DNA of 64,000 nt from Bacteroidota bacterium (GTDB lineage: Bacteria; Bacteroidota; Bacteroidia; Bacteroidales; UBA7960): positions 55,951 through 119,950 of the forward strand of contig REDJ01000108.1 of assembly GCA_007693555.1 (NCBI GenBank). The letters are read 5' to 3'. Below the pieces are notes generated by a model that was not told the DNA's origin, made no database searches, and worked only from the letters and a program-made list of their open reading frames with translations. Made by a program: the position numbers and the translations under genes. Numbering within the stretch: position 1 is the stretch's first letter; the number at the start of each line of letters is the position of its first letter. Shown in pieces: positions 19,001 through 40,089 of this stretch.

Positions 19001-21553
19001 ATGGAAGCGAAATTTTCTCCAAGAGTTAAAGATGTTATTACCTACAGTCGTGAAGAAGCGGTTCGTAATGGTAATGATTACATTGGTATAGAGCATCTTT
19101 TACTCGGACTAATCAGAGAAGGTGAAGGCCTTGCCGTTCAGATACTGATCAACCTGGGCGTTGATCTTTCCCGAATAAAATCTCACATAGAAAGAACCAT
19201 CCGCACCGATTCAAAAAAGAGTCGCAGCGTTGATAATATTCCTTTGGTAAAACAAGCTGAACGTGTACTAAAAATTACCTATCTTGAAGCAAAAGTTTTT
19301 AACAGTGATATTATAGGAACCGAACACTTGCTGTTATCTATCCTGAAGGATAAGGAAAACCTTGCCACCAGATTATTGTTACAGCAAGGTGTGGATTATG
19401 ATAGCATTAAGGAAGAAATAGTTCATCTCAGGAATAATCCTGGTGACGAAGCCCGTTTGGGAGATATAAATCCGCGTAGTGAATTGTCTCAGGGATCTGA
19501 AGATGATGAAACCAGTGAAGGTGGTGGCTTTGGAGGAGGAGGGTTTAAAAAATACTCTGATAAATCCAAAACTCCGGTACTTGACAATTTTGGACGCGAT
19601 CTTACCAAAGCGGCCGAAGAAGACCGCCTTGACCCCGTTGTGGGCCGTGAGAAAGAACTTGAGCGCATTGCCCAGATTTTATCACGTCGCAAAAAAAACA
19701 ACCCCATCCTTATTGGTGAACCCGGAGTAGGTAAATCTGCAATTGCCGAAGGATTGGCCCTGCGTATTGTTCAGAGAAAAGTATCCAGAGCATTGTTCAA
19801 TAAGCGCATTGTAACCCTTGATATTGCATCTCTGGTTGCCGGTACCAAATACCGTGGTCAGTTTGAAGAGCGTATGAAAGCCCTGCTCAATGAACTGGAA
19901 AAAACTCCAGATGTAATTCTCTTTATTGATGAATTACATACAATAGTTGGTGCCGGTGGTGCAAGTGGTTCGCTTGATGCATCTAACATGTTTAAACCTG
20001 CCCTTGCAAGAGGTGAAATTCAGTGTATAGGTGCCACAACACTTGATGAGTATCGTCAGCATATTGAAAAGGATGGTGCCCTGGAACGGCGTTTCCAGAA
20101 GGTTTTAATCGATCCCACAACGGCAGATGAAACTATTGAAATTCTCAATAATATCAAGAAAAAGTACGAGGATCATCATCTTGTAACATATGCACCTGAA
20201 GCCATTAAGGCTTGTGTAAGCCTTACCAGCAGATATGTAACCGATCGTTGCCTGCCTGATAAAGCTATTGACGCAATGGATGAAGCCGGTTCACGTGTGC
20301 ACATTACCAATATAAAAGTACCGGAGAACATTATCAATATTGAGGCTAAGATAGATACAGTGCGCGAAGAAAAAACACGTGCCATCAAAAGCCAGAAATA
20401 TGAACAGGCAGCCAAATTCCGCGATCAGGAGCGAGAATTACTTGATTTACTGGAAAAAGAAAAACGTGCCTGGGAAGAAGAATCTCAGTTGCATCGTGAA
20501 ACAGTTTCTGAGCACAATGTATCAGAGGTTGTTTCCATGATGACAGGCGTACCTGTGCAGCGTATTGCTCTCAATGAAAGTCAGAGACTTGTAAATATGG
20601 AATCTGACCTGGAAAAAAGTGTAATTGGTCAGCAAGATGCAATTAAAAAAGTCGTACAATCTATCCGGCGTAACCGTGCCGGACTGAAAGATCCTGCCAA
20701 GCCCATTGGTAGTTTTATTTTCCTCGGACCTACAGGTGTTGGTAAAACACACCTGGCTAAAGTATTGTCCAAGCATCTTTTCGACTCAGATGATGCCATT
20801 GTACGTATCGATATGAGTGAATACATGGAAAAATTCGCGGTTAGCCGTCTCATTGGTGCACCTCCCGGATACGTCGGTTATGAAGAAGGTGGACAACTTA
20901 CGGAAAAAATCAGACGTAAGCCCTATTCTGTTGTTTTACTTGACGAAATAGAAAAGGCTCACCCTGATGTATTCCACCTGCTTCTTCAGATGCTTGATGA
21001 TGGTCAACTGACCGATAGTCTTGGCAGACGAATTGATTTCAAAAACACAATTATTATAATGACCTCCAATATCGGGTCACGTCAGCTCAAAGATTTTGGC
21101 ATGGGCGTCGGATTTAATACCAGCGCCAAAAAAACAGGCAGTAAGGACTACACACAGGGAGTTATAGAAAACGCCCTAAAGAAATCATTTGCACCTGAAT
21201 TTCTTAACAGGGTAGATGATATCGTAATATTTGAAAATCTTGAAAAAGAAGATATTTTCAAAATTATTGATATAGAACTGGCCAAGCTTTATACCCGTAT
21301 AGAAGATTTGGGTTATAAGGTGATCCTTTCAGATACTGCAAAAGAATATATTGCAGAAAAAGGATGGGATTCAGCTTTTGGCGCAAGACCGCTTAAGAGA
21401 GCTATCCAAAAATATCTGGAAGATCCCCTTGCTGAAGAGATCATAAGAGCCAAAGTGGAAGAAGGTGATGAGATCTATGTTGATTTCGACAGTGAAAACA
21501 GCGAAATTACAGTAAAAGCGCAAAAAGCTGCCAAAGAAAAAGCAGACTCGTAG
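19001..21553 (+). CDS. clpC: ATP-dependent Clp protease ATP-binding subunit ClpC
   Basis: Clp-N repeats; two AAA modules ([16 protein letters not shown]); UVR motif ([13 protein letters not shown]); VGF ClpP-binding loop. Confidence 0.93.
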
Positions 21554-21584
21554 ATTTATATGCATTGAAGATTAGATTATTCTT

Positions 21585-21620
21585 AAAAACCGGACTACCA
21601 TTGGGGAGTCCGGTTTTTTT
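21585..21620 (+). terminator. Rho-independent terminator after clpC
   Basis: aaaaaccggact...agtccggttttttt stem with T tract. Confidence 0.85.
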
Positions 21621-21872
21621 AATTCCTCTTGCTCAATTACCTTAACACCAAGGATTTTATTATAACATCAACATACCTTCATTTAGCAATACCTAACTTC
21701 GTATTTCTTAATATTTTATTAATGCAATATTGTGAAAAAAATTTTCAAAAACACTTACTAGTTTATAAGAGTTATTGTAGATTTGAATTTTTATTTCTAT
21801 TAGCTGAATATTGAAATATCCTTGCAATAATTCTCCTAAAATATTAAGTCAATTAATCAAAAATCTATCAAC

Positions 21873-24641
21873 ATGAAGAAAAGAATATACCTGAGTTTTT
21901 TGATTTTCGCAATTATGGCCTGTACAGGTCAGATTTTCGCACAGGAAATGGAAATCAGAGGTACTGTAAGAGACGTTTCTGATCAACAAACCTTACCTGG
22001 TGTGAATGTTACTGTAAAAGGAACTACAATTGGTTCGGTTACCGATATCAATGGTCAATACCGAATTACAGCACCGATTGGTTCTGTAATTGTATTCACC
22101 TTTGTGGGAATGCAAACCAAGGAGGTAGAAGTGGATGGCAGAACAAATATTATCAATGTAGATCTGCGTAGCGAAGTGGCGATACTTCAAGAATTTGTTG
22201 TAGCTGTTTCGGCCATTGCACGCGACAGAGAAACGCCGGTTGCCATTTCTAACATAAGTGCTGAAGTAATCAGCGAGCGATTGGGTTCACAGGAGTTTCC
22301 TGAAATTCTCAAATCCACACCCAGTGTCTATGCTACAAAAGATGGCGGTGGTTTTGGTGATGGCCGTATCAACCTAAGGGGCTTCGACTCCAACAATATT
22401 GGAGTATTGATCAATGGAGTTCCGGTAAATGATATGGAGAACGGTCGTGTTTACTGGTCAAACTGGGCCGGACTATCTGACGTCACTCAGACTATGCAGG
22501 TGCAACGTGGCCTTGGTGCTTCCAGGCTGGCAATCAGTTCAGTAGGAGGTACCATTAATATAGTTACTCAAACTACTGATGCCAGAAAAGGGGGAACGGT
22601 TTTTTATGGATTCGGACATGATGGTTATCAGCGCAGATCCATTTCACTATCTACCGGAATGCTTGAAAATGACTGGACAGTTACCGCACTTGGAGGACGA
22701 ACAACCGGTCATGGTTTCGTGGATGGCACTGAGTTTGACGGCTGGTCTTATTTTCTTAATGCATCAAAAAAAGTAAACGACCAGCATATACTCAGCTTCA
22801 CTGCCTTTGGAGCACCGCAATGGCATAACCAACGCTGGCCACGTCAATTGGTACAAACCTATCGTGATCATGAGAAGGGAATTCGTTATAATCCTTCGCG
22901 GGGATTGCTTAACGGGCAGTATTTCAATGCTTCTCACAATGAGTACCACAAACCTCAGCTTTCGCTGAATCACTTCTGGTCAATCAACCCCTCCACTACC
23001 CTATCAACTGCATTGTATGCTTCCATTTCTTCGGGTGGTGGACGCAGAACTCTTGGACCTCAAAACTCATGGTTTCAATATGATCGCAATACGGGAAAAC
23101 CTGTTCAGGGCACAACAAAGCTTACTCCAGATGGGTATCTCGATTTTGACTATGCCCTGGAGCATAATGCAAATTTGCTCAATGGTTCTGAAGTTATTAT
23201 TGGGAATGCCATGAATGAACATGACTGGTACGGTATGTTGTCAACCATGCAGCATGAAATTCAAAATTTGCGTTTCACCGGAGGTCTTGATTTACGGTAT
23301 TACAGGGGGTATCATTATCAGATGGTAACGCATTTACTGGGTGGCACTCACTACCAGGACAACAGAACTATGAGAGATTACCAGAACAATGATTCAATTG
23401 TTTCAAGAAACGTAAACAGGGCCCCTTACGAAAGGCTGGGTGTTGGAGATAAAATAGGATATCATGATTTGGGTGAAGTTGGATGGGCTGGTATGTTTAC
23501 ACAGGCAGAATATGTTACTCCTGAATATTCCGCATTTATTTCTGCTACCCTTTCCAATACCAGCTATCGTCGTACAGATTATTTTCTCTATTTTGATGAT
23601 GACTCTCCGCACAGACCTATGTTTTTAGACAAAGCAGAGTCACTTTTAAATCAGGCCAATGAAGCATTTGCAGCAGGTGACACGGCTACGTACGATGAGC
23701 TATTGACACAATCCAACAGAATTAATAATATGCAGGCGCTGGAACCCCAGAGGTCTGACTGGGTTGATTTTCTGGCCTTTAGCATAAAAGGAGGTGCCAA
23801 TTACAATATTACTGACAATCATAATGTTTTTGCGAACGCCGGTTATTTCACCCGGGCACCATTTTTCAGATTTGCTTTTGTTGGCTTTACCAATGTCATC
23901 AATACCGGAGTAAACCATGAAAGAGTATTTTCATCCGAAATAGGATATGGTTATCGTTCTCCTTTTGCAGCTGCCAATGTTATACTATACCGCACCGAAT
24001 GGCTTGACAAAGCACTGGTAAGAAACCTGGGTCAGGGACTCATTGCCAATATTACCGGCCTGGATGCATTACACCAGGGACTTGAAATAGATTTTACGCT
24101 ACGTCCGGTTAAAGATCTTGAAATAAGGGGTATGTTCTCTTACGGTGACTGGAAATGGCAGGATGATGTAATTGCGGAAATTTATGACGATAACCAGGAG
24201 CTTCAGGATGTGGTTGAAGTTTATGCCGGAGGCCTAAGAGTGGGTAACTCAGCACAAACTACTGCTGCATTGGGTGCAAATTATGAGGTTCTTCCGAACG
24301 TGAGACTGGGATTTGATATCAATCATTTTGACAGGAACTTTGCCAACTTCAATGTAGAAGATCGCGGTGACCCAAGATCTATTGGTCAGAATGCATGGCA
24401 AATGCCTTCACATCAGCTGGTTGATTTGTATCTGAGATACAGGTTTAAGATAGCCGGACTGGATGCCACACTTATATCCAATATCAATAACCTGTTTAAT
24501 ACAAGTGTGATAAGGGATGCTACTGACGGTGTAAAATTTGATGATGATACAAATGCCCCTATTTATGGTTTACCCGAGACAGCTATTGTATACTATGGCT
24601 GGGGACGAACATGGACAACCTCTATCAGGGTGAGGTTTTAA
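21873..24641 (+). CDS. TonB-dependent receptor (CarboxypepD_reg-like N-domain, plug, beta-barrel; non-SusC type)
   Basis: LPGVNVTVKGT...TDINGQY N-domain; plug INLRGF...INGVPVNDMENGRVYWSNWAGL...VQRG...GGTINIVT; INNLFN; C-terminal GRTWTTSIRVRF. Confidence 0.93.
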   Translation: MKKRIYLSFLIFAIMACTGQIFAQEMEIRGTVRDVSDQQTLPGVNVTVKGTTIGSVTDINGQYRITAPIGSVIVFTFVGMQTKEVEVDGRTNIINVDLRSEVAILQEFVVAVSAIARDRETPVAISNISAEVISERLGSQEFPEILKSTPSVYATKDGGGFGDGRINLRGFDSNNIGVLINGVPVNDMENGRVYWSNWAGLSDVTQTMQVQRGLGASRLAISSVGGTINIVTQTTDARKGGTVFYGFGHDGYQRRSISLSTGMLENDWTVTALGGRTTGHGFVDGTEFDGWSYFLNASKKVNDQHILSFTAFGAPQWHNQRWPRQLVQTYRDHEKGIRYNPSRGLLNGQYFNASHNEYHKPQLSLNHFWSINPSTTLSTALYASISSGGGRRTLGPQNSWFQYDRNTGKPVQGTTKLTPDGYLDFDYALEHNANLLNGSEVIIGNAMNEHDWYGMLSTMQHEIQNLRFTGGLDLRYYRGYHYQMVTHLLGGTHYQDNRTMRDYQNNDSIVSRNVNRAPYERLGVGDKIGYHDLGEVGWAGMFTQAEYVTPEYSAFISATLSNTSYRRTDYFLYFDDDSPHRPMFLDKAESLLNQANEAFAAGDTATYDELLTQSNRINNMQALEPQRSDWVDFLAFSIKGGANYNITDNHNVFANAGYFTRAPFFRFAFVGFTNVINTGVNHERVFSSEIGYGYRSPFAAANVILYRTEWLDKALVRNLGQGLIANITGLDALHQGLEIDFTLRPVKDLEIRGMFSYGDWKWQDDVIAEIYDDNQELQDVVEVYAGGLRVGNSAQTTAALGANYEVLPNVRLGFDINHFDRNFANFNVEDRGDPRSIGQNAWQMPSHQLVDLYLRYRFKIAGLDATLISNINNLFNTSVIRDATDGVKFDDDTNAPIYGLPETAIVYYGWGRTWTTSIRVRF

Positions 24642-24676
24642 TTCATTGATTTTGTAATCTTATAAAACTCAAAGAT

Positions 24677-25996
24677 ATGAATACAATTAAAAAGCTATTA
24701 TTGATATTGGTTCTTATGGCCGCACTTTTCTCAGCCTGTGATCCAAACAGAGAATTATATGATCTTCTCGATGATATGCAAGATCCTCATAATGAAGGGA
24801 TTGAATATACTCTTGTAGAAGCTGATTATACACGGTTTCCCGGATTCATAAGAGATAACCTGGCTTTTAATGATACTTTGCCGGCTATGGATTTTGTACC
24901 GGATATATTGAAGGTAAGGTTTGTTACACTCAGGCAGGAAAGCAGCGCAATGGTCACATATAACCATTTTCTGATTCATCCTCTTTGGTGGGATGCAGGA
25001 TTTGGGTATGAAATGACCGAGGAAGATTATGGTGAAGATGGAGTAAACATTGATGGAAATGCCTTTACAGAAAACAATCCTGCAAAGAATCACCTGCCTT
25101 CATTCTTACGCATTTTGTTTCCGGGAGCAGATGAAGGAGATATAGTACATATTATCTACAATTTTATTACAGAAGGAGAAACGATCAAGAATCTTGATAA
25201 ATACGAATTTAACGGCCAGATATGGATATGGCAGGAAACCATTTCTGATATACCTTACGTTGGCTATGAGCTTACTGCAGAAGATTACGAGAATTTTGGC
25301 GGTACAGTAGCAAGATTCGGAAATTTCAGTGAAAGTTATCCGCCTGAAACACATTTGCCTGTATTATTAAAAAACTTGTTCCCATTTGCACTTGAAGGTG
25401 CCGAACAGGTTGTGAAATACAGATATCGCGATGGCAGCCAGGTAGTAAACCGTATTGACAAATATGAATTTGACGGCACACATTGGATAAAAATCCCATA
25501 CATTGAAGAGCGGTCAGAACAGTATATTTTTGGGGCTCTTGGTTGGGCATTTGATCCCACAGTTACCTTCCAGATGGGCTGGAGTGATTATATGTACCTG
25601 GCAGAAATTGACCCCATTCCCCATGAAACTTTCAGTGACTTTGGGTACTATTATGGTGCCAGTGCGTTCTTCAGGAATTTTGATATCAGGTTAATTGGCA
25701 GAAGACTTAACAAAGATGATGATGGAAACTACAGAGACCCGCAGCTGGGAGAGATTTATGAGAATGAAGGCTCGGAAGCTGCCATGGATGAAATGTTGCG
25801 TAGAATAAAAGAAGAAGGAATTATTTTGCTTTTACAGCATAAATTTCCCGATGCTACACCCCAGGTTGGAGGCATTGATGTGCACTATATAGTACATTTT
25901 GAAACATTTGCCGATAACTGGGTAAGAAACTACCCGGTAGCCGAATATATTTGTGTTGCAGCAGGCAATCCGCCGCAATTTGAATTGATCGAATAA
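24677..25996 (+). CDS. Surface lipoprotein with three internal repeats (TBDR partner, not SusD)
   Basis: Lipobox FSAC followed by acidic residues; three YxLxxxDY...F...P...L...F repeats; 35 nt after the TBDR. Confidence 0.8.
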   Translation: MNTIKKLLLILVLMAALFSACDPNRELYDLLDDMQDPHNEGIEYTLVEADYTRFPGFIRDNLAFNDTLPAMDFVPDILKVRFVTLRQESSAMVTYNHFLIHPLWWDAGFGYEMTEEDYGEDGVNIDGNAFTENNPAKNHLPSFLRILFPGADEGDIVHIIYNFITEGETIKNLDKYEFNGQIWIWQETISDIPYVGYELTAEDYENFGGTVARFGNFSESYPPETHLPVLLKNLFPFALEGAEQVVKYRYRDGSQVVNRIDKYEFDGTHWIKIPYIEERSEQYIFGALGWAFDPTVTFQMGWSDYMYLAEIDPIPHETFSDFGYYYGASAFFRNFDIRLIGRRLNKDDDGNYRDPQLGEIYENEGSEAAMDEMLRRIKEEGIILLLQHKFPDATPQVGGIDVHYIVHFETFADNWVRNYPVAEYICVAAGNPPQFELIE

Positions 25997-26019
25997 ACTT
26001 AATTGCAATAGTTTTTAAT

Positions 26020-26057
26020 AAACAAAGAGGCAAGCCGACCAGCTTGCCTCTTTGTTT
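26020..26057. terminator. Bidirectional terminator between convergent genes
   Basis: Perfect 16-bp stem aaacaaagaggcaagc / gcttgcctctttgttt. Confidence 0.88.
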
Positions 26058-26080
26058 GGGATATAATTAAAAACTAAGGA

Positions 26081-28339
26081 TTATCTCTGAATTTGTAATT
26101 TGTAATTCAAATGATTGTTGCTATATACAACCTGAACAATATAAATTCCTGTTTTTAAATCACTCACATTGATAACAGTTGAATTGTCATCAACCCGCTC
26201 CTGCAAAACCAACTGTCCGTTCATATTATATACGCGCACATAATCAATGGTATGCTCTCCTGATATGGTAAATTGTGTTACCGCGGGATTGGGAAACATG
26301 CTGAAGCCTGCAGCTTCAATTTCCTGTATGCTTGTTGGCTCAAGAAAATCTTCAAGTGACCTGGGTTGTAGTCTGGTTACTTCCCAACGCTGATGTAATA
26401 CTCCAATAAGGTCTTTGGGTTCGGTGGGTATGGGTGTACCGAAATAGTCAAGCAAATCTGCGAAATTGGGCGTTCTTATTACCCCTTCACCTGAGTCATC
26501 AAAAATAAAATAAGACCGGTTATGTGCAAAGTTAGGGTCATCAGGAAAATCAGGATGGTCAAAGTCAAATGAAACGTTTTTTACAAGTACAAGCATACCC
26601 TGCATGTCCTCATTAAGGTCAGCCAGTGTAAACACCATGGGCTCAACAGTGTTCCCGGTTGAACTGGGGGCTCCAAAATCCTCAACAGGGACAAATTGCA
26701 GCATATTCTGAAAAACATCAAGTTTACCCCTGATATTGGTAAGACCTTCATAAGTATTGTATTCAGTAGTAATTATACCATCATCGTCATCAATCATGAT
26801 AGCTCCTGTTTCATCCTGAATGTAAAACTGTCCACGATATGCCTGCTGCACATGTGTTATAACTACCTCTCCGGTAACCTCGTAAACCAAATCACCATCT
26901 TCCTGTTCTCTTAATGAAGCAATATCGTCTACCAGGATAGCTTCAGGAGCCTGCTCAATTACAATATCATCAATGAACCACTGATGTGCATCTTCGCCCT
27001 GGTAAACAAATGCAATGTAAACAACTTTTCCGGCAAAGTCTCCAAGGTTTACAATGCGTTCTGCATAACTGGCAATTCCTGTGGATGATTCATATACTTC
27101 AACAAACTCATTTTGCTCAGGATTTCCACTACCCGTAGAAACTTTAACTCCGCTGTAATCATATCTGCCAGTCATAAAAGCATTTCTCTGGAAGAATTTC
27201 AACAGCATGTTTTCTTCTTCAGGAAGCTGGATTTGTGGCGATACAAGCCACGAGTCTGCCTCATCTGCGAAGAAATCATGAAAAGCTGCTTTTTCTCCGC
27301 TATGGGCAGTTGAAGTTGATGCCCAGCCTCCGTCACCATATGCATAATGGCTCCAGGTTAATGGAGGAAATTCTTCACCTTCAAAGTCTTCTTCCCATGG
27401 GAATTCAGTTACAAGATTGGGCGATATTTCTACCAGTACCACGGTAATGGTTGCATCTTCAGAAACAGCGATCATTCCTTCACGGGTAAAATATCCTTCT
27501 TTTACAATAGTAAAGGGATGACTACCACCGGGTACTTCTTCAAACAGATAATCTCCGGCATCGTTGGTCTGATCTCCCAGGGTAATTACCGCATCTGTAA
27601 CAGGGTCATTGTTTTCATCAATAACATCAAAGGTTATATCATAAGTAGCCAGTGACTCAAAATCTGAAAGAAAACGTGCAGTCAGAAAATCACCTTCAGC
27701 CCGTGAATTTGGTAATCCTGTAATATTAAATGGCCCTCCGGGAATGGGTGTTCCGATGTAATCTTCACCAAAGAAGGTTGTTCTGAATTCGGCTATTATC
27801 TCTCCATCAGTAATTTCGTATACCTGACCGTTGGCAAAGTTACCGGTAGGTTCAACAAAGCTTATATCCAATACTTTTACCAGTCTTGACTGGTAATCCA
27901 TAAAATTATCAACAAACTCTGAAAGACTGATTTCCAGTGGTATTACTTCATTATCCTCTGATGTTGCTTCACCCGGATCCTCAGCCGGTACAAACTGACG
28001 CATATTGCCAAAAATACTTATGGTACCCGTGAGACCGGTAATACCATCATAAAGGTTATAAGAGGTGGTAATAACTCCAGGGTTGTCATCAATAAGGATT
28101 CCTCCGGTTTCGTCCTGGATGTATTTGTGATTTCGGAAACTTTGTTGGTAGGTAAGCACTACTTCTCCTGTTACCTCGTAAACAGTGTCATTGTCAATAA
28201 AATCCATTTCCAGAAGTTCGCCAAGATTTTGTACCTGCACAACATCATTGTTTTCCTTTGGTGTTTGTGAAAAAACAGCGCTGTTTATTGCACCTGCAAA
28301 TATTATCAGCAAAATGTTTAAAATTGTAATTTTTTTCAT
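26081..28339 (-). CDS. T9SS-secreted protein: two tandem OB-fold-like (DUF5689/YhcR-type) modules flanking an Ig-like and a cleaved-adhesin (choice-of-anchor J) domain
   Basis: Signal peptide; duplicated VYEVTGEVV...YIQDETG module; EDFEG...DSWLVSPQI...YIAF...WFIDDI adhesin motif; type A CTD (MFPNPA...VYNMNGQLV...LKTGIYIV). Confidence 0.8.
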   Translation of the reverse strand: MKKITILNILLIIFAGAINSAVFSQTPKENNDVVQVQNLGELLEMDFIDNDTVYEVTGEVVLTYQQSFRNHKYIQDETGGILIDDNPGVITTSYNLYDGITGLTGTISIFGNMRQFVPAEDPGEATSEDNEVIPLEISLSEFVDNFMDYQSRLVKVLDISFVEPTGNFANGQVYEITDGEIIAEFRTTFFGEDYIGTPIPGGPFNITGLPNSRAEGDFLTARFLSDFESLATYDITFDVIDENNDPVTDAVITLGDQTNDAGDYLFEEVPGGSHPFTIVKEGYFTREGMIAVSEDATITVVLVEISPNLVTEFPWEEDFEGEEFPPLTWSHYAYGDGGWASTSTAHSGEKAAFHDFFADEADSWLVSPQIQLPEEENMLLKFFQRNAFMTGRYDYSGVKVSTGSGNPEQNEFVEVYESSTGIASYAERIVNLGDFAGKVVYIAFVYQGEDAHQWFIDDIVIEQAPEAILVDDIASLREQEDGDLVYEVTGEVVITHVQQAYRGQFYIQDETGAIMIDDDDGIITTEYNTYEGLTNIRGKLDVFQNMLQFVPVEDFGAPSSTGNTVEPMVFTLADLNEDMQGMLVLVKNVSFDFDHPDFPDDPNFAHNRSYFIFDDSGEGVIRTPNFADLLDYFGTPIPTEPKDLIGVLHQRWEVTRLQPRSLEDFLEPTSIQEIEAAGFSMFPNPAVTQFTISGEHTIDYVRVYNMNGQLVLQERVDDNSTVINVSDLKTGIYIVQVVYSNNHLNYKLQIQR

Positions 28340-28524
28340 GATATTTTTTTTGGTTAGTAATTAATTAAATGCTTTTTTTAACAACTTTTTTTATGATCAT
28401 CAGATAACAAATTTAGAAAAAACTTCATGCCTTAAGAAATTTATTCATTAAAGTTTTATTAAATATTTTCCACTGTCGGAAAGGATTATCTGAATCATGC
28501 GTCATAGCTGTAAATCTTATTTTG

Positions 28525-28532
28525 TACCTTTG
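28525..28532 (+). promoter_or_regulatory. -7 box for recF
   Basis: TACCTTTG 17 nt upstream of the ATG; a divergent TAAATTTG box for the T9SS gene lies at 28408-28415 (minus strand). Confidence 0.55.
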
Positions 28533-28549
28533 ACATTTCAGAATAAATT

Positions 28550-29665
28550 ATGCATTTACAATCCCTCACATTACTAAATTTTAAAAACTACCATGAGGTA
28601 AAACTTGACTTTCTCTCGCGGATCAATTGTTTTGCCGGTAACAACGGATCAGGTAAAACCAATCTGCTGGATGCCATATATTATCTCTCATTTTGCAAAG
28701 GCTTTTGTAATCCTTCTGATATACAGAATATACTTTTTGATGAAGAATTCTTTGTTATTCAGGGACAATACAAAGTAAACGGAAACAAAGACGAACTCTA
28801 TTGTGCTGTTAAAAAGGGGCAAAGAAAAGTTTTTAAAAGAAATAAAAAGGAGTATGACCGCTTAGCGGATCATATTGGATTCTATCCGTTGGTTTTGATT
28901 TACCCCGGGGATGTGCATCTTATTCAGGGTGGCAGTGATGAAAGAAGGAAATTTGTGGATGGGGTAATTGCCCAATATAATAAAGAATACCTGCACAGAT
29001 TGCTTGATTATAATAAGGCCCTGCTTCAACGGAATATATTGCTGAAAACTTTTGCTGAAAAGAGATATTTTGATGAAGCGAGTCTGGAAATATGGGATGA
29101 ACAATTAAAAATAAACGGTATCTATATTTTTGAGGAGAGAAAAAGTTTTTTTGAACGTTTTAAACCTGTTTTTCAGAAAAATCATGATGAACTTACAGGT
29201 AAAGCAGAGAGTATTGATATCGATTATGAATCGCAGTTAAAGGAATCCGATCCCGGTGAATTGCTTTTACAATCGCGTAATAAAGACCGGATTCTGCAAC
29301 ATACCACTACGGGTATTCATAAGGATAACCTGGTTTTTTTGCTAAACGGGCAAGCCATGAAAAAATTTGGCAGCCAGGGCCAACAGAAATCCTATGTAAT
29401 TGCCCTGAAGCTGGCACAGTTTCAGTTTACAAAACAATTAAAGGGCTTTAATCCCATTCTTTTATTCGATGATATATTTGATAAACTGGATCCACGTCGG
29501 GTTGAATTGTTGGTACGAATGGTGAGCGAAAATGATTTCGGACAGGTTTTCATAACAGATACGCATACAGAAAGACTTGTTGAAATTCTGGAAAAACTGA
29601 AAGTAAAATCTCGTATTTTTGACATAGTATATGGTGAAATAGCAGCCATTAAGGAATTTGGTTAG
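28550..29665 (+). CDS. recF: DNA replication and repair protein RecF
   Basis: NFKNY; Walker A GNNGSGKTN; GIHKD; GSQGQQKS; LLFDDIFDKLD; QVFITDT. Confidence 0.95.
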   Translation: MHLQSLTLLNFKNYHEVKLDFLSRINCFAGNNGSGKTNLLDAIYYLSFCKGFCNPSDIQNILFDEEFFVIQGQYKVNGNKDELYCAVKKGQRKVFKRNKKEYDRLADHIGFYPLVLIYPGDVHLIQGGSDERRKFVDGVIAQYNKEYLHRLLDYNKALLQRNILLKTFAEKRYFDEASLEIWDEQLKINGIYIFEERKSFFERFKPVFQKNHDELTGKAESIDIDYESQLKESDPGELLLQSRNKDRILQHTTTGIHKDNLVFLLNGQAMKKFGSQGQQKSYVIALKLAQFQFTKQLKGFNPILLFDDIFDKLDPRRVELLVRMVSENDFGQVFITDTHTERLVEILEKLKVKSRIFDIVYGEIAAIKEFG

Positions 29666-30987: not shown

Positions 30988-31599
30988 TTATTCGGAAATT
31001 TCTTCTGAAAGAATTATTTTACCTCCATTTTTAAGAACAGTTTTCTTCATGTTCTCCCAACCCTTCTTATCGATTGGCCTGGTGGCATCTTCAATAAGAT
31101 TCGTATCAAAACCCAGTCCGAGAGAATCGAGTGTTGTAAAACCAACACAAAAGTCTGCAGCTAAACCCCCGATAAAAACACGGGTAACTCCCCTGCCCTT
31201 CAGGTAATCACCCAACCCGGTTGATTTCTTTTTACCATTATCAAAAAAACCGCTGTATGAGTCAATTCCCGTGTCTGTTCCCTTACGGAAAATGGCTTCA
31301 ACTAAATGCATTTCGAGCTCTGAAGAAAAATCCGCACCTTTTTGACCCTGCACGCAATGGTCTGGCCATAGTATCTGGTCTAATCCTCCAAGCTGGGTTT
31401 GTTCAAATTCATTTTTACCGGGATGATTGGAAGCAAAACTTCCATGATCCTGAGGATGCCAGTCCTGGGTTGCAACTACCAAAGGAAATTTTTTGCTTAT
31501 ACGATTCAGTACAGGAATAATTTTATCTCCTTCAGGCACGGCAAGAGCTCCTCCGGGTAAAAAATCATTTTGTACGTCTACTAATAATAATGCATCCAT
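30988..31599 (-). CDS. pncA: Nicotinamidase/pyrazinamidase
   Basis: VDVQNDFLPGGALAV; QDWHP; WPDHCVQ; KG...DSYSGF; GLAADFCV. Confidence 0.95.
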   Translation of the reverse strand: MDALLLVDVQNDFLPGGALAVPEGDKIIPVLNRISKKFPLVVATQDWHPQDHGSFASNHPGKNEFEQTQLGGLDQILWPDHCVQGQKGADFSSELEMHLVEAIFRKGTDTGIDSYSGFFDNGKKKSTGLGDYLKGRGVTRVFIGGLAADFCVGFTTLDSLGLGFDTNLIEDATRPIDKKGWENMKKTVLKNGGKIILSEEISE

Positions 31600-31653
31600 T
31601 TTTCCTGGTTTTTAAGTTAATATATCTGGGTTTGTAGCGATCAGGTCAAAATT

Positions 31654-33060
31654 TTATTTGTATTTCAATAATAAATCATCTCTGATTTTAAGAACTTTTT
31701 CACTTATACCCACTTTGTAAATGTGCGGAAAATCAAATCTCTGGTGCTCGGCAGGAAGCAGATTTAAGCGTGTTCTTAACCTTTCATTTATTTTTTGTGG
31801 ACTTTCTGCCACTTCGGTAATCTTACCCTTTTTCATAGCCGTAAACATCAATTCTTCGCACCTAAATCCTTCAAGACTTAAAGTTTTAAGTTTTTCAAAA
31901 GGATCGATCATTCGACTAACATCTGTTTCATCAATCATAACAACAGCATCAGCATAATAATATCCCTCTCGGTCAAAATATCTCAATATTTTCTTCCTGC
32001 CGGGCAATGTGGTTTTTTGAAGGTTATCTGAGATCTTAAGCACATTTCTGTTATTTACGTGCGCAAGCTTGTAAACGCCATCTAATGCTGCATCAGGTTT
32101 TCCGGTAATAAGATTGGTACCTACTCCGAAAATATCGATAGGTGCTTTTTGTTCTATCAAACTTCTTATAACATATTCATCCAACTGATTAGAAACAATT
32201 ATTTTAACTTCATTAAACCCGTCATAATCCAGCATTTCCCTTGCTTTCTTTGACAAATAAGCAAGGTCGCCGCTATCTAGTCTGATTGCTTTAAGCATGT
32301 GCCCTTTTTCCCTCATTTCTTTGGCAACTTTGATTGCGTTAGGAATTCCACTCATGAGTGTATTGTAGGTATCTACAAGAAAAGTGGCATTATTGGGAAA
32401 AGTTTTGGCATAAGCCCGGAACGCTGATATCTCATCCCCAAAGCTTTCGATAAAGCTATGTGCCATTGTGCCGGCATGGGGGATTCTGTAATTTCTTGCT
32501 GCCAACACATTGGATGTACTGTTAAAGCCACCGATTATAGCGGCTCTCGAAGCTTGTATAGCACCAAATGACTGTGCCCGGCGAAGCCCAAAATCGCTTA
32601 ATGTGCGGTTACCTCCTGCAAATCTTATCCTGCTTGCTTTGGTGGCAATGAGGGATTGAAAGTTCAAAACATTGAGTAGCAATGTTTCAACAAGCTGGGT
32701 TTCCAATAAGCTACCTTCTACCCTGACTACCGGTTCGAAAGGAAAAACAACATCGCCCTCTCGCACAGAAATAATATCGCCTTTAAATGTGAATGATTTC
32801 AGATGATTGACAAAATCTTTATCGAAGCCAGATTCAAGTAAATAGTCCAGATCACGATCCGTAAAACGTAAATTTTCAGTAAGTTCCAGAAAGTCCTGTA
32901 AACCTGCAAATACAACATAGCCCCCTTTAAAGGGAAGTTTTCTGAAAAAATAATCAAAAGAGGCATGCTCTTCGTGCATTCCTGTTTTAAAATAAGCTTG
33001 TGCCATTGTAAGCTGATACAAATCGGTATACAATGGTGAAACCTCTTGATAAGTGTACAT
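31654..33060 (-). CDS. pncB: Nicotinate phosphoribosyltransferase
   Basis: TDLYQLTM; DFGLRRAQ; GTMAHS (phospho-His); LVDTY; IRLDSGDL; FGVGT. Confidence 0.95.
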   Translation of the reverse strand: MYTYQEVSPLYTDLYQLTMAQAYFKTGMHEEHASFDYFFRKLPFKGGYVVFAGLQDFLELTENLRFTDRDLDYLLESGFDKDFVNHLKSFTFKGDIISVREGDVVFPFEPVVRVEGSLLETQLVETLLLNVLNFQSLIATKASRIRFAGGNRTLSDFGLRRAQSFGAIQASRAAIIGGFNSTSNVLAARNYRIPHAGTMAHSFIESFGDEISAFRAYAKTFPNNATFLVDTYNTLMSGIPNAIKVAKEMREKGHMLKAIRLDSGDLAYLSKKAREMLDYDGFNEVKIIVSNQLDEYVIRSLIEQKAPIDIFGVGTNLITGKPDAALDGVYKLAHVNNRNVLKISDNLQKTTLPGRKKILRYFDREGYYYADAVVMIDETDVSRMIDPFEKLKTLSLEGFRCEELMFTAMKKGKITEVAESPQKINERLRTRLNLLPAEHQRFDFPHIYKVGISEKVLKIRDDLLLKYK

Positions 33061-33086
33061 GAGGATATTTTTACCGGTTTTATGAA

Positions 33087-33626
33087 TTAAAGTTTTTTTA
33101 AGGCTTTAACATGTTCATCATAATCTTTATCAGACCATATAACCAATCTGATTCTTTTCAGACTTTTTAAATTTTGCATTTCTTTGTAAATTGTCTGAAC
33201 GGCAACGGGGGCAGCCTCTTCAACAGGATATCCAAATACTCCGGTTGACACTGCGGGGAAAGCGATACTTTTTAAATTATATTCTTCGCACAATTTCAAT
33301 GCATTGATATAACATTTGGCCAGCAATTGGTCATGTGGAATGTCTCTGTCATAAACAGGCCCTAACACATGTATAACATGCTTATTGGGGAGGTTGTAAG
33401 CTTTTGTAATTACAGCCTCTCCGGGTTTTATGGGTCCTTTTTTCATTGCTTCGTTTTCCAAATCAGGACCGGCTGCTTTGTGGATAACCCCTGCTACTCC
33501 TCCACCGATGCGTAAAAATGCATTTGCTGCATTTACAATGGCATCCATGTCATTTTGTTTTACTATATCACCCTTTGTAATTTCAAAGCAGGTTTTACCG
33601 CGCAGTATTTGTTCTTTCTTAAACAT
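33087..33626 (-). CDS. MacroD-type macrodomain protein (O-acetyl-ADP-ribose deacetylase / ADP-ribosylhydrolase, YmdB-like)
   Basis: GDI; AIVNAAN; GGGVAGVIH; VIHVLGP; AFPAVSTGVFGYP. Confidence 0.9.
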   Translation of the reverse strand: MFKKEQILRGKTCFEITKGDIVKQNDMDAIVNAANAFLRIGGGVAGVIHKAAGPDLENEAMKKGPIKPGEAVITKAYNLPNKHVIHVLGPVYDRDIPHDQLLAKCYINALKLCEEYNLKSIAFPAVSTGVFGYPVEEAAPVAVQTIYKEMQNLKSLKRIRLVIWSDKDYDEHVKALKKL

Positions 33627-38205: not shown

Positions 38206-40089
38206 ATGATGCAAAATGCAAATGTCAGGAAGTTTTTGAAAAAGGTAGAGCTTTTTCGCGAACTCGGAGAAAAAGAACTGGATGTGGTAATGAAAGAAGT
38301 TCAGGAAAAGACTTATAATCCCAGGGCCTACCTTTTTCAGGAAAACAGCCCCCGAAACAAGTTTCTTTTTCTGATTTATGAGGGTGAGGTAGAACTTTTC
38401 AAAAAAACTCCCTTTGGTGAAGAAAAGCGTTTAAGCTACTTTGGCACCTACGACTTTTTGGGCGAAGGGACTATTATGGCTGATACCCCCCACTCTACCA
38501 CAGCACGCGCATTAAAAAAGACAAAAGTCCTGTGCATATCGAAAGAGGGGTTTACGCATTTATTTGATACGGAAACTGCCATTGCACTTAAGATATTTAA
38601 GCAAATATCAAAGGTGATATCGCGCAGAATGCGCCAAAGCAATTCGAAAATAGTAAATGTAGGAGCACAATACGAATCAGGGCGCACACGTACGGAAAAG
38701 GATTTATTAGGTACACGCGAAGTTCCCGCTGAGGTATATTATGGTATACAGACATTGCGTGGAATAGAAAACTTCACAATGAGCGGGGTTACACTCAATT
38801 TTTATCCTGAACTTATTGTTGCCCTTGCTCAGGTAAAAATGGCATCTGCCCTTACCAACCATGAATTGGGATTACTTTCTGAGGAAGTCGCAAACGCAAT
38901 AATCAGAGCCTGTCATGAAATCATCAATGGCAAGTATCATCATCATTTCGTGATAGATATGATACAAGGTGGTGCCGGTACTTCAACCAACATGAATGCC
39001 AATGAGGTGATTGCTAACCGTGCATTGGAACTGATGGGATATGAAAAGGGAGAATATAAATACTGCCATCCCAATACACATGTCAACATGTCGCAATCTA
39101 CCAATGATGCATATCCTACTGCGTTTAAAATTGCTCTGATTGCCAGCAATGTAAAACTCGTGGAAGTCCTGCAAATGCTCATTGACGGTATTAAAGAAAA
39201 AGAAACTGAATTTGCAGGTGTAATCAAAATGGGTCGCACCCAGCTTCAGGATGCAGTACCTATGACACTGGGTCAAACTTTTGGGGCTTATGCCACCACC
39301 CTTGAAGAAGAAATTGAAAGATTAAATAGCAATTCATTGTTACTCAAAGAAGTGAATATGGGTGGTACGGCTATTGGCACCGGAATAAATGCAGCACCTC
39401 AATACAGCGAAAAGGTTATAAAACATCTCCGGAAAATAACCGGCTTGAATATAAGATTAGCCAGCAACCTTGTGGAGGCCACCCAGGATACGGGAGCTTT
39501 TGTAATGTACTCGGCAAGCGTAAAACGACTGGCAGTAAAATTATCCAAAATATGCAATGACCTCCGTTTACTTTCTTCGGGGCCACGAGCGGGTATCAAC
39601 GAAATAAATCTACCACCCATGCAACCGGGTTCTTCCATAATGCCCGGAAAGGTTAATCCTGTAATTCCTGAAGTAGTAAATCAGATTGCTTTTAAGGTAA
39701 TTGGGAATGACCTTACCGTAACTCTGGCAGCAGAAGCGGGTCAACTTGAGCTCAATGTAATGGAGCCTATCATGGTGCAGAGTCTTTTTGAATCCATTGA
39801 AATGCTCAAAAATGGCATGACTACCCTGCTTCACAGATGTATCAGCGGTATTACAGCTAATGAAGAACATTGCCGCTCAATGGTAATGAACAGCATAGGG
39901 TTGGTTACGGCTTTAAACCCTCTGCTGGGCTATGAAACCTGCACAATCCTTGCAAAGGAAGCATTACAGCAGAATAAAGGCGTATATGAACTGGTTCTGG
40001 AAAAGCAACTCTTATCCAAAGAGGAGCTCGAAGAGGTATTGAAGCCTGAGAATATGATTGGTCCTCAATCTGTTAAAAGGAAAAAATAA
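38206..40089 (+). CDS. aspA: Aspartate ammonia-lyase with N-terminal cyclic-nucleotide-binding domain
   Basis: aa ~1-150 cNMP-type (LFREL, LFQE, LIYEGEVEL, LGE); from aa ~160 aspartase (EKDLLG, YYGIQTLR, QGGAGTSTNMNANE, KMGRTQLQDAVP, GSSIMPGKVNP). Confidence 0.9.
   Translation: MMQNANVRKFLKKVELFRELGEKELDVVMKEVQEKTYNPRAYLFQENSPRNKFLFLIYEGEVELFKKTPFGEEKRLSYFGTYDFLGEGTIMADTPHSTTARALKKTKVLCISKEGFTHLFDTETAIALKIFKQISKVISRRMRQSNSKIVNVGAQYESGRTRTEKDLLGTREVPAEVYYGIQTLRGIENFTMSGVTLNFYPELIVALAQVKMASALTNHELGLLSEEVANAIIRACHEIINGKYHHHFVIDMIQGGAGTSTNMNANEVIANRALELMGYEKGEYKYCHPNTHVNMSQSTNDAYPTAFKIALIASNVKLVEVLQMLIDGIKEKETEFAGVIKMGRTQLQDAVPMTLGQTFGAYATTLEEEIERLNSNSLLLKEVNMGGTAIGTGINAAPQYSEKVIKHLRKITGLNIRLASNLVEATQDTGAFVMYSASVKRLAVKLSKICNDLRLLSSGPRAGINEINLPPMQPGSSIMPGKVNPVIPEVVNQIAFKVIGNDLTVTLAAEAGQLELNVMEPIMVQSLFESIEMLKNGMTTLLHRCISGITANEEHCRSMVMNSIGLVTALNPLLGYETCTILAKEALQQNKGVYELVLEKQLLSKEELEEVLKPENMIGPQSVKRKK

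Follow-up and report, generated by a model that had tools for sequence, protein, structure and literature searches.

A candidate nuclease-less module for outer-membrane nucleic-acid uptake in a soda-lake Bacteroidales bacterium

A three-gene module was analysed in a 64,000-nt stretch of DNA (the window, to whose coordinates positions refer unless another contig is named) from a soda-lake Bacteroidota bacterium of the order Bacteroidales (assembly GCA_007693555.1, contig REDJ01000108.1). The module encodes an outer-membrane transporter of the TonB-dependent type, a lipoprotein and a non-catalytic cargo protein of the type IX secretion system (T9SS), and it is probably a variant, lacking a nuclease, of the systems by which Bacteroidota take up nucleic acid across the outer membrane. 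It would capture nucleic acid outside the cell and import it with power from TonB, the candidate substrates being fragments of DNA or RNA, oligonucleotides or phosphodiesters of nucleotides. A preliminary description made from the letters of the DNA alone had put forward the same reading, which is supported as far as computation goes.

The three genes were confirmed as open reading frames, the lipoprotein gene beginning 35 nt after the transporter gene, and every feature named in the preliminary description was present where it had been placed. The genes and the parts of their products were assigned as follows.

21873-24641, + strand: TonB-dependent outer-membrane transporter, 922 residues (open reading frame, Pfam, NCBIfam, tree)
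24677-25996, + strand: lipoprotein, 439 residues (lipobox; without a Pfam, NCBIfam or fold match)
Lipoprotein residues ~41-100, 108-190 and 194-275, + strand: alpha/beta repeats (self-alignment, model)
Lipoprotein residues 298-439, + strand: C-terminal domain, holding most conserved Arg/Lys positions
26081-28339, - strand: T9SS cargo protein, 752 residues, non-catalytic (Pfam, NCBIfam)
27635-28258, - strand: DUF5689 module 1, residues 28-235, predicted tandem OB fold (AlphaFold2, Foldseek, VIA-align)
27437-27625, - strand: CarboxypepD_reg-like beta-sandwich, residues 239-301 (Pfam E 6e-5, below the curated cut-off)
26957-27397, - strand: choice-of-anchor J / Cleaved_Adhesin (MAM-like) domain, residues 315-461 (NF038128, 56.7 bits against a cut-off of 30)
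26330-26956, - strand: DUF5689 module 2, residues 462-670 (Pfam; 43% identical to module 1)
26093-26299, - strand: type A T9SS C-terminal sorting domain (Por_Secre_tail), residues 681-749 (Pfam, NCBIfam)

The T9SS protein begins with a signal peptide ahead of DUF5689 module 1. The Pfam DUF5689 model (PF18942) matched two stretches of it with 65.3 bits against a cut-off of 28.6; module 2 was the better match, and module 1 alone was sub-threshold in the genome scan (21.8 bits). The identity between the two modules was taken from an alignment that comprised 38 modules, drawn from the window protein and from 18 relatives. Each module has three conserved basic and about ten conserved aromatic positions. 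The sorting domain scored 47.2 bits with TIGR04183 (cut-off 23) and 47.5 bits with PF18962 (cut-off 27), and PorV was present in the genome (E 1e-71). The protein was thus, as had been described, a T9SS cargo with two modules of about 200 residues around a cleaved adhesin, to which the CarboxypepD_reg-like stretch is an addition. No glycosidase, peptidase or other catalytic family was detected by Pfam or NCBIfam in any of the three proteins, in agreement with the motif-free locus of the preliminary description.

The AlphaFold2 model of module 1, the part of the protein covered by structure prediction, had a pLDDT of 93 and a pTM of 0.88 and consisted of two consecutive beta-barrels. All nine Foldseek matches in the PDB at E ≤ 0.001 were to Teb1 AB, to RPA70 with single-stranded DNA (alone, as in 1jmc, and also within a repair complex) or to HIN-200 domains (IFI16, MNDA, p204 and p202, entry 4jbm), with E-values from 9e-5 to 9e-4, 8-17% identity and TM-scores of 0.32-0.40, which are low over the barrel pair because its halves differ in their relative orientation. 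VIA-align returned a Z of 10.5 to the HIN domain of p204 over 87 residues (root-mean-square deviation 2.1) and 47 chains at Z ≥ 8, both halves of the model matching OB folds. Module 1 is therefore modelled as a tandem OB fold and not as an immunoglobulin-like or carbohydrate-binding fold, the alternative that had been named as fatal to the OB reading; module 2 is 43% identical to it in sequence. Sequence searches of solved structures with the T9SS protein and with a canonical DUF5689 protein returned T9SS-tail matches or noise only.

In the transporter a signal peptide is followed by a CarbopepD_reg_2 domain (PF13715, residues 28-110), a Plug domain (residues 118-227) and an atypical barrel, to which the standard Pfam barrel model gave no match. 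The NCBIfam SusC/RagA model (TIGR04056) scored 84.4 bits and matched only N-terminal residues 27-187; because this is far below the cut-off of 368.25, the transporter is not a SusC protein, in agreement with its earlier description as non-SusC. The genome encodes another transporter resembling that of the ddb locus, which Bacteroides thetaiotaomicron is reported to need in order to deplete exogenous DNA (Sharan et al. PNAS 2025, PMC12478041). The window transporter was 25% identical to this ddb-like paralogue across residues 128-921 (E 5e-71), and among the best 25 tblastn rows in the organism's own genome it alone aligned beyond the plug, the others covering the first ~290 residues. Eight transporters of ~800 residues were considered as further ddb-type relatives and rejected, as they matched in the plug region only and are generic. 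Transporter length was 906-923 residues in 9 of 11 relatives at ≥73% identity and 847-880 residues in 43 of 52 more distant ones. An insertion of ~40-50 residues (about 575-625) in the window transporter is absent from the ddb-like paralogue and explains much of this difference.

A quick IQ-TREE phylogeny was computed for 38 selected transporters and rooted by choice on six generic ones. Transporters linked to the lipoprotein formed one clade (SH-aLRT 98), sister to a clade linked to genes for NPP-type phosphodiesterases (98, joint node 85), and the ddb-like pair was the next branch with a support of only 70. The deep nodes are uncertain because two outgroup rows have very long branches. In the sister clade, loci L098-L109 from other Bacteroidota classes encode transporters (~30% identity), the NPP gene lying directly 3′ in 8 of the 14 loci fetched, and two genomes carry two such transporters in tandem. 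We know of no description of this NPP-linked operon type, although no literature search was aimed at it.

The lipobox of the lipoprotein ends in Cys21, and no Pfam or NCBIfam family, SusD/RagB included, was matched at E ≤ 0.1, which bears out its earlier description as a non-SusD lipoprotein downstream of the receptor gene. The three repeats that had been seen in it were recovered: repeats 2 and 3 were 42% identical (E 4e-17), repeat 1 was a shorter copy, and a fourth stretch aligned weakly. Its AlphaFold2 model (pLDDT 86) comprised small alpha/beta repeats and a helical-plus-sheet C-terminal domain. This domain carried seven of the eight conserved Arg/Lys positions, though it is acidic overall (11 K+R against 25 D+E), and its conserved arginine and aromatic positions form a candidate ligand site. 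A prediction of the complex between fragments of the transporter (residues 112-922) and the lipoprotein (residues 296-439) scored 0.00 in both runs and is evidence neither way.

The lipoprotein belongs to a large family. In a 90%-clustered collection 111 homologues were found at E ≤ 0.001, none functionally named and the few with any name being called hypothetical protein, and a profile search returned 984 representative clusters (50% identity) at E ≤ 0.001 and 391 at E ≤ 1e-30. The ESM Atlas yielded solely hypothetical, DUF4270-named or DUF5017-named Bacteroidota clusters, and a sequence-profile search of the PDB yielded no relative. The window lipoprotein itself had no match to DUF5017 (PF16409); its residues ~160-439 are homologous to relatives of 600-840 residues in which DUF5017 occurs once or twice (it was detected in 8 of 13 long representatives, and in 2 of 7 and 2 of 12 in two other scans), a domain type also present in ddb-like accessory proteins of this genome. 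Among proteins of 770-2195 residues no fused longer forms were found, which is weak evidence; the profile search of representative clusters did return DUF5017-bearing forms of 700-840 residues. The possibility that the lipoprotein is a degenerate DUF5689/OB protein was rejected: BLAST showed no similarity, and hhalign gave a probability of 0.2% when the lipoprotein was compared with the aligned DUF5689 modules. A 294-residue probable lipoprotein on contig C133 (L013: 8054-8938, - strand), which over its last 142 residues shares 56% identity with the C-terminal domain of the window lipoprotein, adjoins a T9SS-tailed protein and BamD, not a transporter. No description of the family was found in full-text searches on DUF5689 proteins and Bacteroidota DNA uptake, which did not extend to the supplementary data sets of PMC12478041.

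Co-conservation of the three genes, on which the preliminary description had made its reading depend, was examined with one genome per species at 79 lipoprotein loci, 55 of them close (≥50% lipoprotein identity) and 24 distant (23-44%). A transporter homologue lay directly 5′ of the lipoprotein gene in 77 of the 79, the other two loci beginning inside the lipoprotein gene at a contig end. The T9SS protein had a homologue in 41 of the 55 close loci and in 16 of the 17 close loci in which both flanks could be assessed, L053 being the exception. Its gene was convergent downstream in 22 close loci, as in the window, and in 19 it stood directly upstream of the transporter gene and co-directional with it, 23-205 nt away. 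The two arrangements occupied different genomic contexts, one between Clp ATPase and recF and the other between sucC and gcvT. Because the linkage was kept across both arrangements and contexts, the three genes travel as a unit and the recF neighbourhood is incidental. A functional role for the recF/DciA neighbourhood was accordingly rejected, since 19 relatives hold the module between sucC and gcvT, and the earlier suspicion that its proximity is coincidental was borne out.

Some relatives encode T9SS protein versions of ~940 residues; among three that were scanned, one had three DUF5689 stretches and the others two, and none had a catalytic domain. In two close relatives (L014 and L030) an efflux-type operon of ~6 kb (TetR, ABC, FtsX, FtsX, LolA-like) lies between the lipoprotein and OB genes. 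One locus filed under a Candidatus Nealsonbacteria bin (L074) carries a Bacteroidales-type OB-protein/transporter/lipoprotein module at 51-67% identity, a placement that is probably a binning error.

The genes around more distant homologues were surveyed, as the preliminary description had proposed, and Endonuclease I, EEP, NPP, 5′-nucleotidase and DUF5689 genes were all encountered. Twelve distant loci with full flanks were scanned (56 open reading frames). In Marinifilum flexuosum DSM 21950 (L070) the pair of transporter and long lipoprotein precedes genes for an HU-like protein, an EEP nuclease, a ddb-like transporter and a DUF5689 protein, a layout repeated in a second Marinifilum (L071, by tblastn), and in another Marinifilum (L072) the neighbour is a convergently encoded, T9SS-tailed Endonuclease I. 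An NPP-type phosphodiesterase gene stands directly 3′ of the lipoprotein gene in two loci (L075 and L084), and a 5′-nucleotidase gene is nearby in L091. In all, nucleic-acid or nucleotide phosphoesterases adjoin the pair in 5 of the 12 loci, every one of them bearing a signal peptide or lipobox, and no glycosidase or peptidase was found beside the pair in any of the 12. Ribonucleotide reductase is encoded downstream in four distant loci, three of which are not independent because they share gene order.

A similar association was found from the side of the transporter. Its profile matched at E ≤ 1e-40 in 109 of 201 sampled Bacteroidota genomes, many of the matches covering the plug only. Fourteen full-length matches were picked by hand, non-randomly, from this list. 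An NPP gene lay directly 3′ in eight of these loci and was followed in four of the eight by two M16 peptidase genes; the remainder had a divergent S1/P1 nuclease gene (one), a lipoprotein homologue (two), a T9SS-tailed protein (one) or nothing recognisable (two). The S1/P1 nuclease adjoins a transporter belonging to the lipoprotein-linked clade.

The NPP genes, behind sister-clade transporters and behind the lipoprotein gene in two of the 12 distant loci, would also suit a general scavenging of organic phosphorus, in which the pair imports other phosphodiesters (lipid head groups, teichoic-acid fragments, nucleotide sugars) and the OB protein is a polyanion-binding accessory. The clustering of conserved Arg/Lys positions in the lipoprotein's C-terminal domain would fit such a role, acidic as that domain is overall. 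Flavobacterium johnsoniae under phosphate starvation is reported to induce pairs of a transporter and a hypothetical non-SusD lipoprotein (Lidbury et al. 2020, PMC8115612), and their transporters have the same Pfam profile as that of the window, the likeness being one of Pfam profile alone. However, true nucleases (Endonuclease I, EEP and S1/P1) are also among the neighbours, and the nearest solved relatives of the linked protein's folds bind DNA. This explanation is judged unlikely.

The organism's own genome encodes DUF5689 at four loci beyond the window, and these agree with the earlier suggestion that a nuclease for the module is encoded elsewhere. C171 (L009: 6526-14103) carries a canonical ddb-like cluster, with a divergent EEP nuclease, the ddb-like transporter of 853 residues, a 435-residue DUF5689 lipoprotein and a 751-residue protein with two DUF5689 domains and a DUF6359 domain. 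This transporter is without a CarboxypepD_reg domain, and a hybrid histidine kinase is encoded upstream. C54 (L011: 3-3128) encodes a T9SS-tailed protein that joins a PLD domain to DUF5689, and on C91 (L012: 1-6366) a DUF5689-containing protein of at least 1718 residues adjoins a secreted Endonuclease I; the C54 and C91 proteins probably also belong to the means by which the organism handles extracellular nucleic acid. The fourth locus, C236, encodes an RCC1-repeat protein with DUF5689 beside a subtilase.

The genome also encodes ComEC, DprA and a protein containing three HhH motifs, which raises the possibility of uptake for natural transformation. The OB/anchor-J protein would then bind long double-stranded DNA and the barrel would pass it intact to the periplasm for a ComEA-like protein, ComEC and DprA, so that the missing nuclease would be the point and not a gap. 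The domain make-up of the T9SS protein and transporter recalls that of two Riemerella anatipestifer proteins reported as essential for transformation, RA0C_RS04920 (DUF5689, DUF5017 and choice-of-anchor J) and RA0C_RS04915 (a CarboxypepD_reg barrel) (Huang et al. 2021, PMC8459023), and the co-directional, closely spaced T9SS and transporter genes of the 19 rearranged relatives would also fit this reading. The Riemerella likeness, however, is one of domain composition alone, and the presence of ComEC, HhH and DprA says little because the same families were hit in 10-11 of 14 control genomes. Degradative enzymes (NPP, 5′-nucleotidase and Endonuclease I) accompany the distant relatives and the sister clade and point to catabolism. 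Transformation is regarded as quite unlikely.

An importer of peptides, glycans or metal complexes standing beside an adhesin with sugar- or protein-binding OB folds, the two linked by shared surface biogenesis, would draw on the M16 peptidase pairs of four sister-clade loci, the RCC1/subtilase setting of one DUF5689 protein, the lack of a recognisable ligand-binding fold in the lipoprotein and the fact that OB folds are not confined to nucleic acids, but it is very unlikely given a linkage that survives rearrangement into a different genomic context, distant loci with phosphoesterases and without glycosidases or peptidases beside the pair, and nearest transporter relatives that are ddb-like or NPP-linked.

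For the preferred reading, nucleic-acid capture and import, the following mechanism is envisaged. The 752-residue protein would be exported by Sec and then by the T9SS, and displayed on or released from the cell surface, where its four OB folds, arranged as two HIN/RPA-like tandem modules, may hold nucleic acid without cutting it. The transporter, from its family and context, would carry the substrate across the outer membrane. Because its adjacency is invariant, the lipoprotein is proposed as the transporter's dedicated partner, in complex with it and in the place that DdbD occupies in the ddb system; its surface location is assumed by analogy. Cutting could be left to the nucleases encoded elsewhere, namely the EEP nuclease, Endonuclease I and the PLD-type T9SS protein with DUF5689, whose presence in the genome is what suggests this step. 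Imported material would serve as a source of phosphorus, nitrogen or nucleobases or, less likely, feed ComEC/DprA-dependent transformation.

Several observations weigh against this proposal. OB folds also bind oligosaccharides and proteins, and the fold shared with HIN and RPA domains does not show a shared ligand. The T9SS protein is very acidic (pI 4.05, net charge -94), a caveat raised from the outset; it is weakened by the canonical DUF5689 proteins of the same genome, whose pI of 4.2-4.3 means that acidity does not set the T9SS protein apart. The lipoprotein is strongly acidic as well (net charge -44), is without similarity to DUF5689, and had no fold match in Foldseek against the PDB at E ≤ 0.001 or in VIA-align against 48,161 chains (best Z 4.6, within noise). 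No T9SS protein homologue was found beside any of the 24 distant lipoprotein loci (tblastn, 1e-5), so the link with this protein holds for one subclade only. The transporter lies outside the ddb-type clade, to which it is joined on the chosen root by a node of 70% support, and neither the three proteins nor the products of the flanking housekeeping genes matched a nuclease family in Pfam or NCBIfam. Finally, the lipoprotein N-terminus, CDPNRE, misfits the strict surface-export motif C(x/xx)(D/E)(D/E) as given in PMC12478041, and surface exposure is for that reason not established.

In a bolder version, regarded as rather unlikely, the lipoprotein family would be a substrate-binding partner different from SusD as well as from DdbD and dedicated to a nucleic-acid or nucleotide transporter clade of its own. 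With a four-OB tether displayed through the T9SS and without a nuclease, the module of the present subclade would import DNA that is long and uncut and would be a gateway for natural transformation in uncultured soda-lake Bacteroidales, not a feeding system.

Three regulatory features were recorded around the genes.

26020-26057, no strand assigned: bidirectional hairpin terminator, 16-bp stem and 6-nt loop, between two convergent stop codons
21778-21785, + strand: TAGATTTG, weak Bacteroidota-type -7 promoter-like motif, 88 nt 5′ of the receptor start
28408-28415, - strand: TAAATTTG, weak promoter-like motif, 69 nt 5′ of the T9SS gene start

The shared terminator between the convergent genes was described correctly at the outset. 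Its stem is perfect (-30.5 kcal/mol, z = -6.9) and none of 200 shuffled sequences folded as well; a simple terminator scan had not listed it. TAnnTTTG, which we take to be the Bacteroidota -7 element, occurred 88 times in the window against an expected 80 ± 9. As it is not enriched, the motif at 21778-21785 is a candidate only. A sigma-70 promoter scan gave 18 sites, fewer than the 23 ± 4.7 of shuffled sequence, and no Rfam family was found in 21400-28700 at E ≤ 0.1. The flanks are housekeeping genes, with gyrA and the Clp ATPase on one side and recF and DciA on the other.

Soda-lake metagenome runs, possibly including the source of the assembly, contain the stretch nearly whole, and other runs contain less than one tenth of the sampled words. 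One metatranscriptome library contains contigs, 90-95% alike, over parts of the genes for the transporter and the T9SS protein, a weak hint that the module is expressed; in the DNA run of the same sample these stretches (192, 304 and 468-546 nt) are matched by contigs as well. The lipoprotein gene was not covered at 90% likeness in the RNA library, from which no conclusion is drawn.

Two further gene sets in the window were observed. An unusual fusion at 38206-40089 (+ strand) encodes a 627-residue class II fumarase/aspartase-type lyase with an N-terminal cyclic-nucleotide-binding domain, and at 30988-33626 (- strand) isochorismatase-family (nicotinamidase-like), nicotinate phosphoribosyltransferase and macro-domain genes stand in a row that looks like an NAD-salvage or ADP-ribose cluster.

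Extracellular DNA is a major pool of phosphorus and nitrogen. Recognition that Bacteroidota take up DNA across the outer membrane through TonB-dependent transporters dates only from 2021-2025, the described cases being those of gut Bacteroidales and of Riemerella. The present module would extend this picture by an unannotated lipoprotein family (about 1,000 clusters at 50% identity) as the partner in place of DUF5689, by a putative DNA-binding OB-fold component deliverable by the type IX system, and by a transporter clade whose sister is widespread and linked to NPP phosphodiesterases. The reading, if confirmed, would give many hypothetical proteins of one large family a function and help to chart extracellular DNA recycling, or gene acquisition, by sediment Bacteroidota.

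Among known systems, the HIN-200 proteins (p202, IFI16, p204 and MNDA) and RPA70/Teb1 share with the modelled module two consecutive OB barrels per ~200 residues; the window modules differ in being acidic and, at the identities and TM-scores given above, are remote from them. Polysaccharide utilization loci of the SusCD type and the F. johnsoniae pairs have the same general plan of outer-membrane transporter, surface lipoprotein and accessory binding proteins. The window pair, in contrast, is neither SusC nor SusD by family score, and the reported phosphate-induced transporters resemble that of the window in having PF07715 and PF13715 without PF00593, a comparison of Pfam profiles alone (PMC8115612).

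The DUF5689/DUF5017 nucleic-acid loci that the preliminary description had named, ddb included, do exist (PMC12478041, PMC8459023). With the Riemerella transformation genes as described, the window shares DUF5689 and choice-of-anchor J on one protein and an adjacent outer-membrane barrel gene bearing the CarboxypepD_reg-type domain, both likenesses resting on domain composition. DUF5017, present on longer relatives of the window lipoprotein, occurs in Riemerella too, and in F. columnare a DUF5017 protein is reported between the two transformation genes (PMC8459023). The window module differs in its invariant third gene, the lipoprotein, and in the two DUF5689 modules and T9SS tail of its OB protein.

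The closest parallel in organisation is ddbABCDEF, in which DdbC is the transporter and DdbD a DUF5689 lipoprotein, the two predicted to form a complex; DdbD is said there to resemble p202 (entry 4jbm), and the locus to be related to the Riemerella genes (PMC12478041). Loci are counted as ddb in that study by a DdbC homologue with >50% identity and >75% coverage to subtype Bt1, Bt2, Pv1 or Pv2, between which DdbC identity is ~25%. In the window the adjacent partner is the unannotated repeat lipoprotein instead of a DUF5689 lipoprotein, and DUF5689 resides on a two-module T9SS cargo, convergent here and upstream in relatives. The transporter falls in a separate clade, as compared through the genome's own ddb-like transporter (25%) and not through DdbC itself, and the secreted or periplasmic nucleases of the ddb locus have no counterpart in the window locus. 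Shared by both are a PUL-like organisation, with a non-SusC TonB-dependent transporter and a non-SusD partner gene directly downstream, and a tandem-OB DUF5689 protein resembling the HIN domain of p202; moreover, subtype Pv2 as described is, like the window locus, without a secreted nuclease (PMC12478041).

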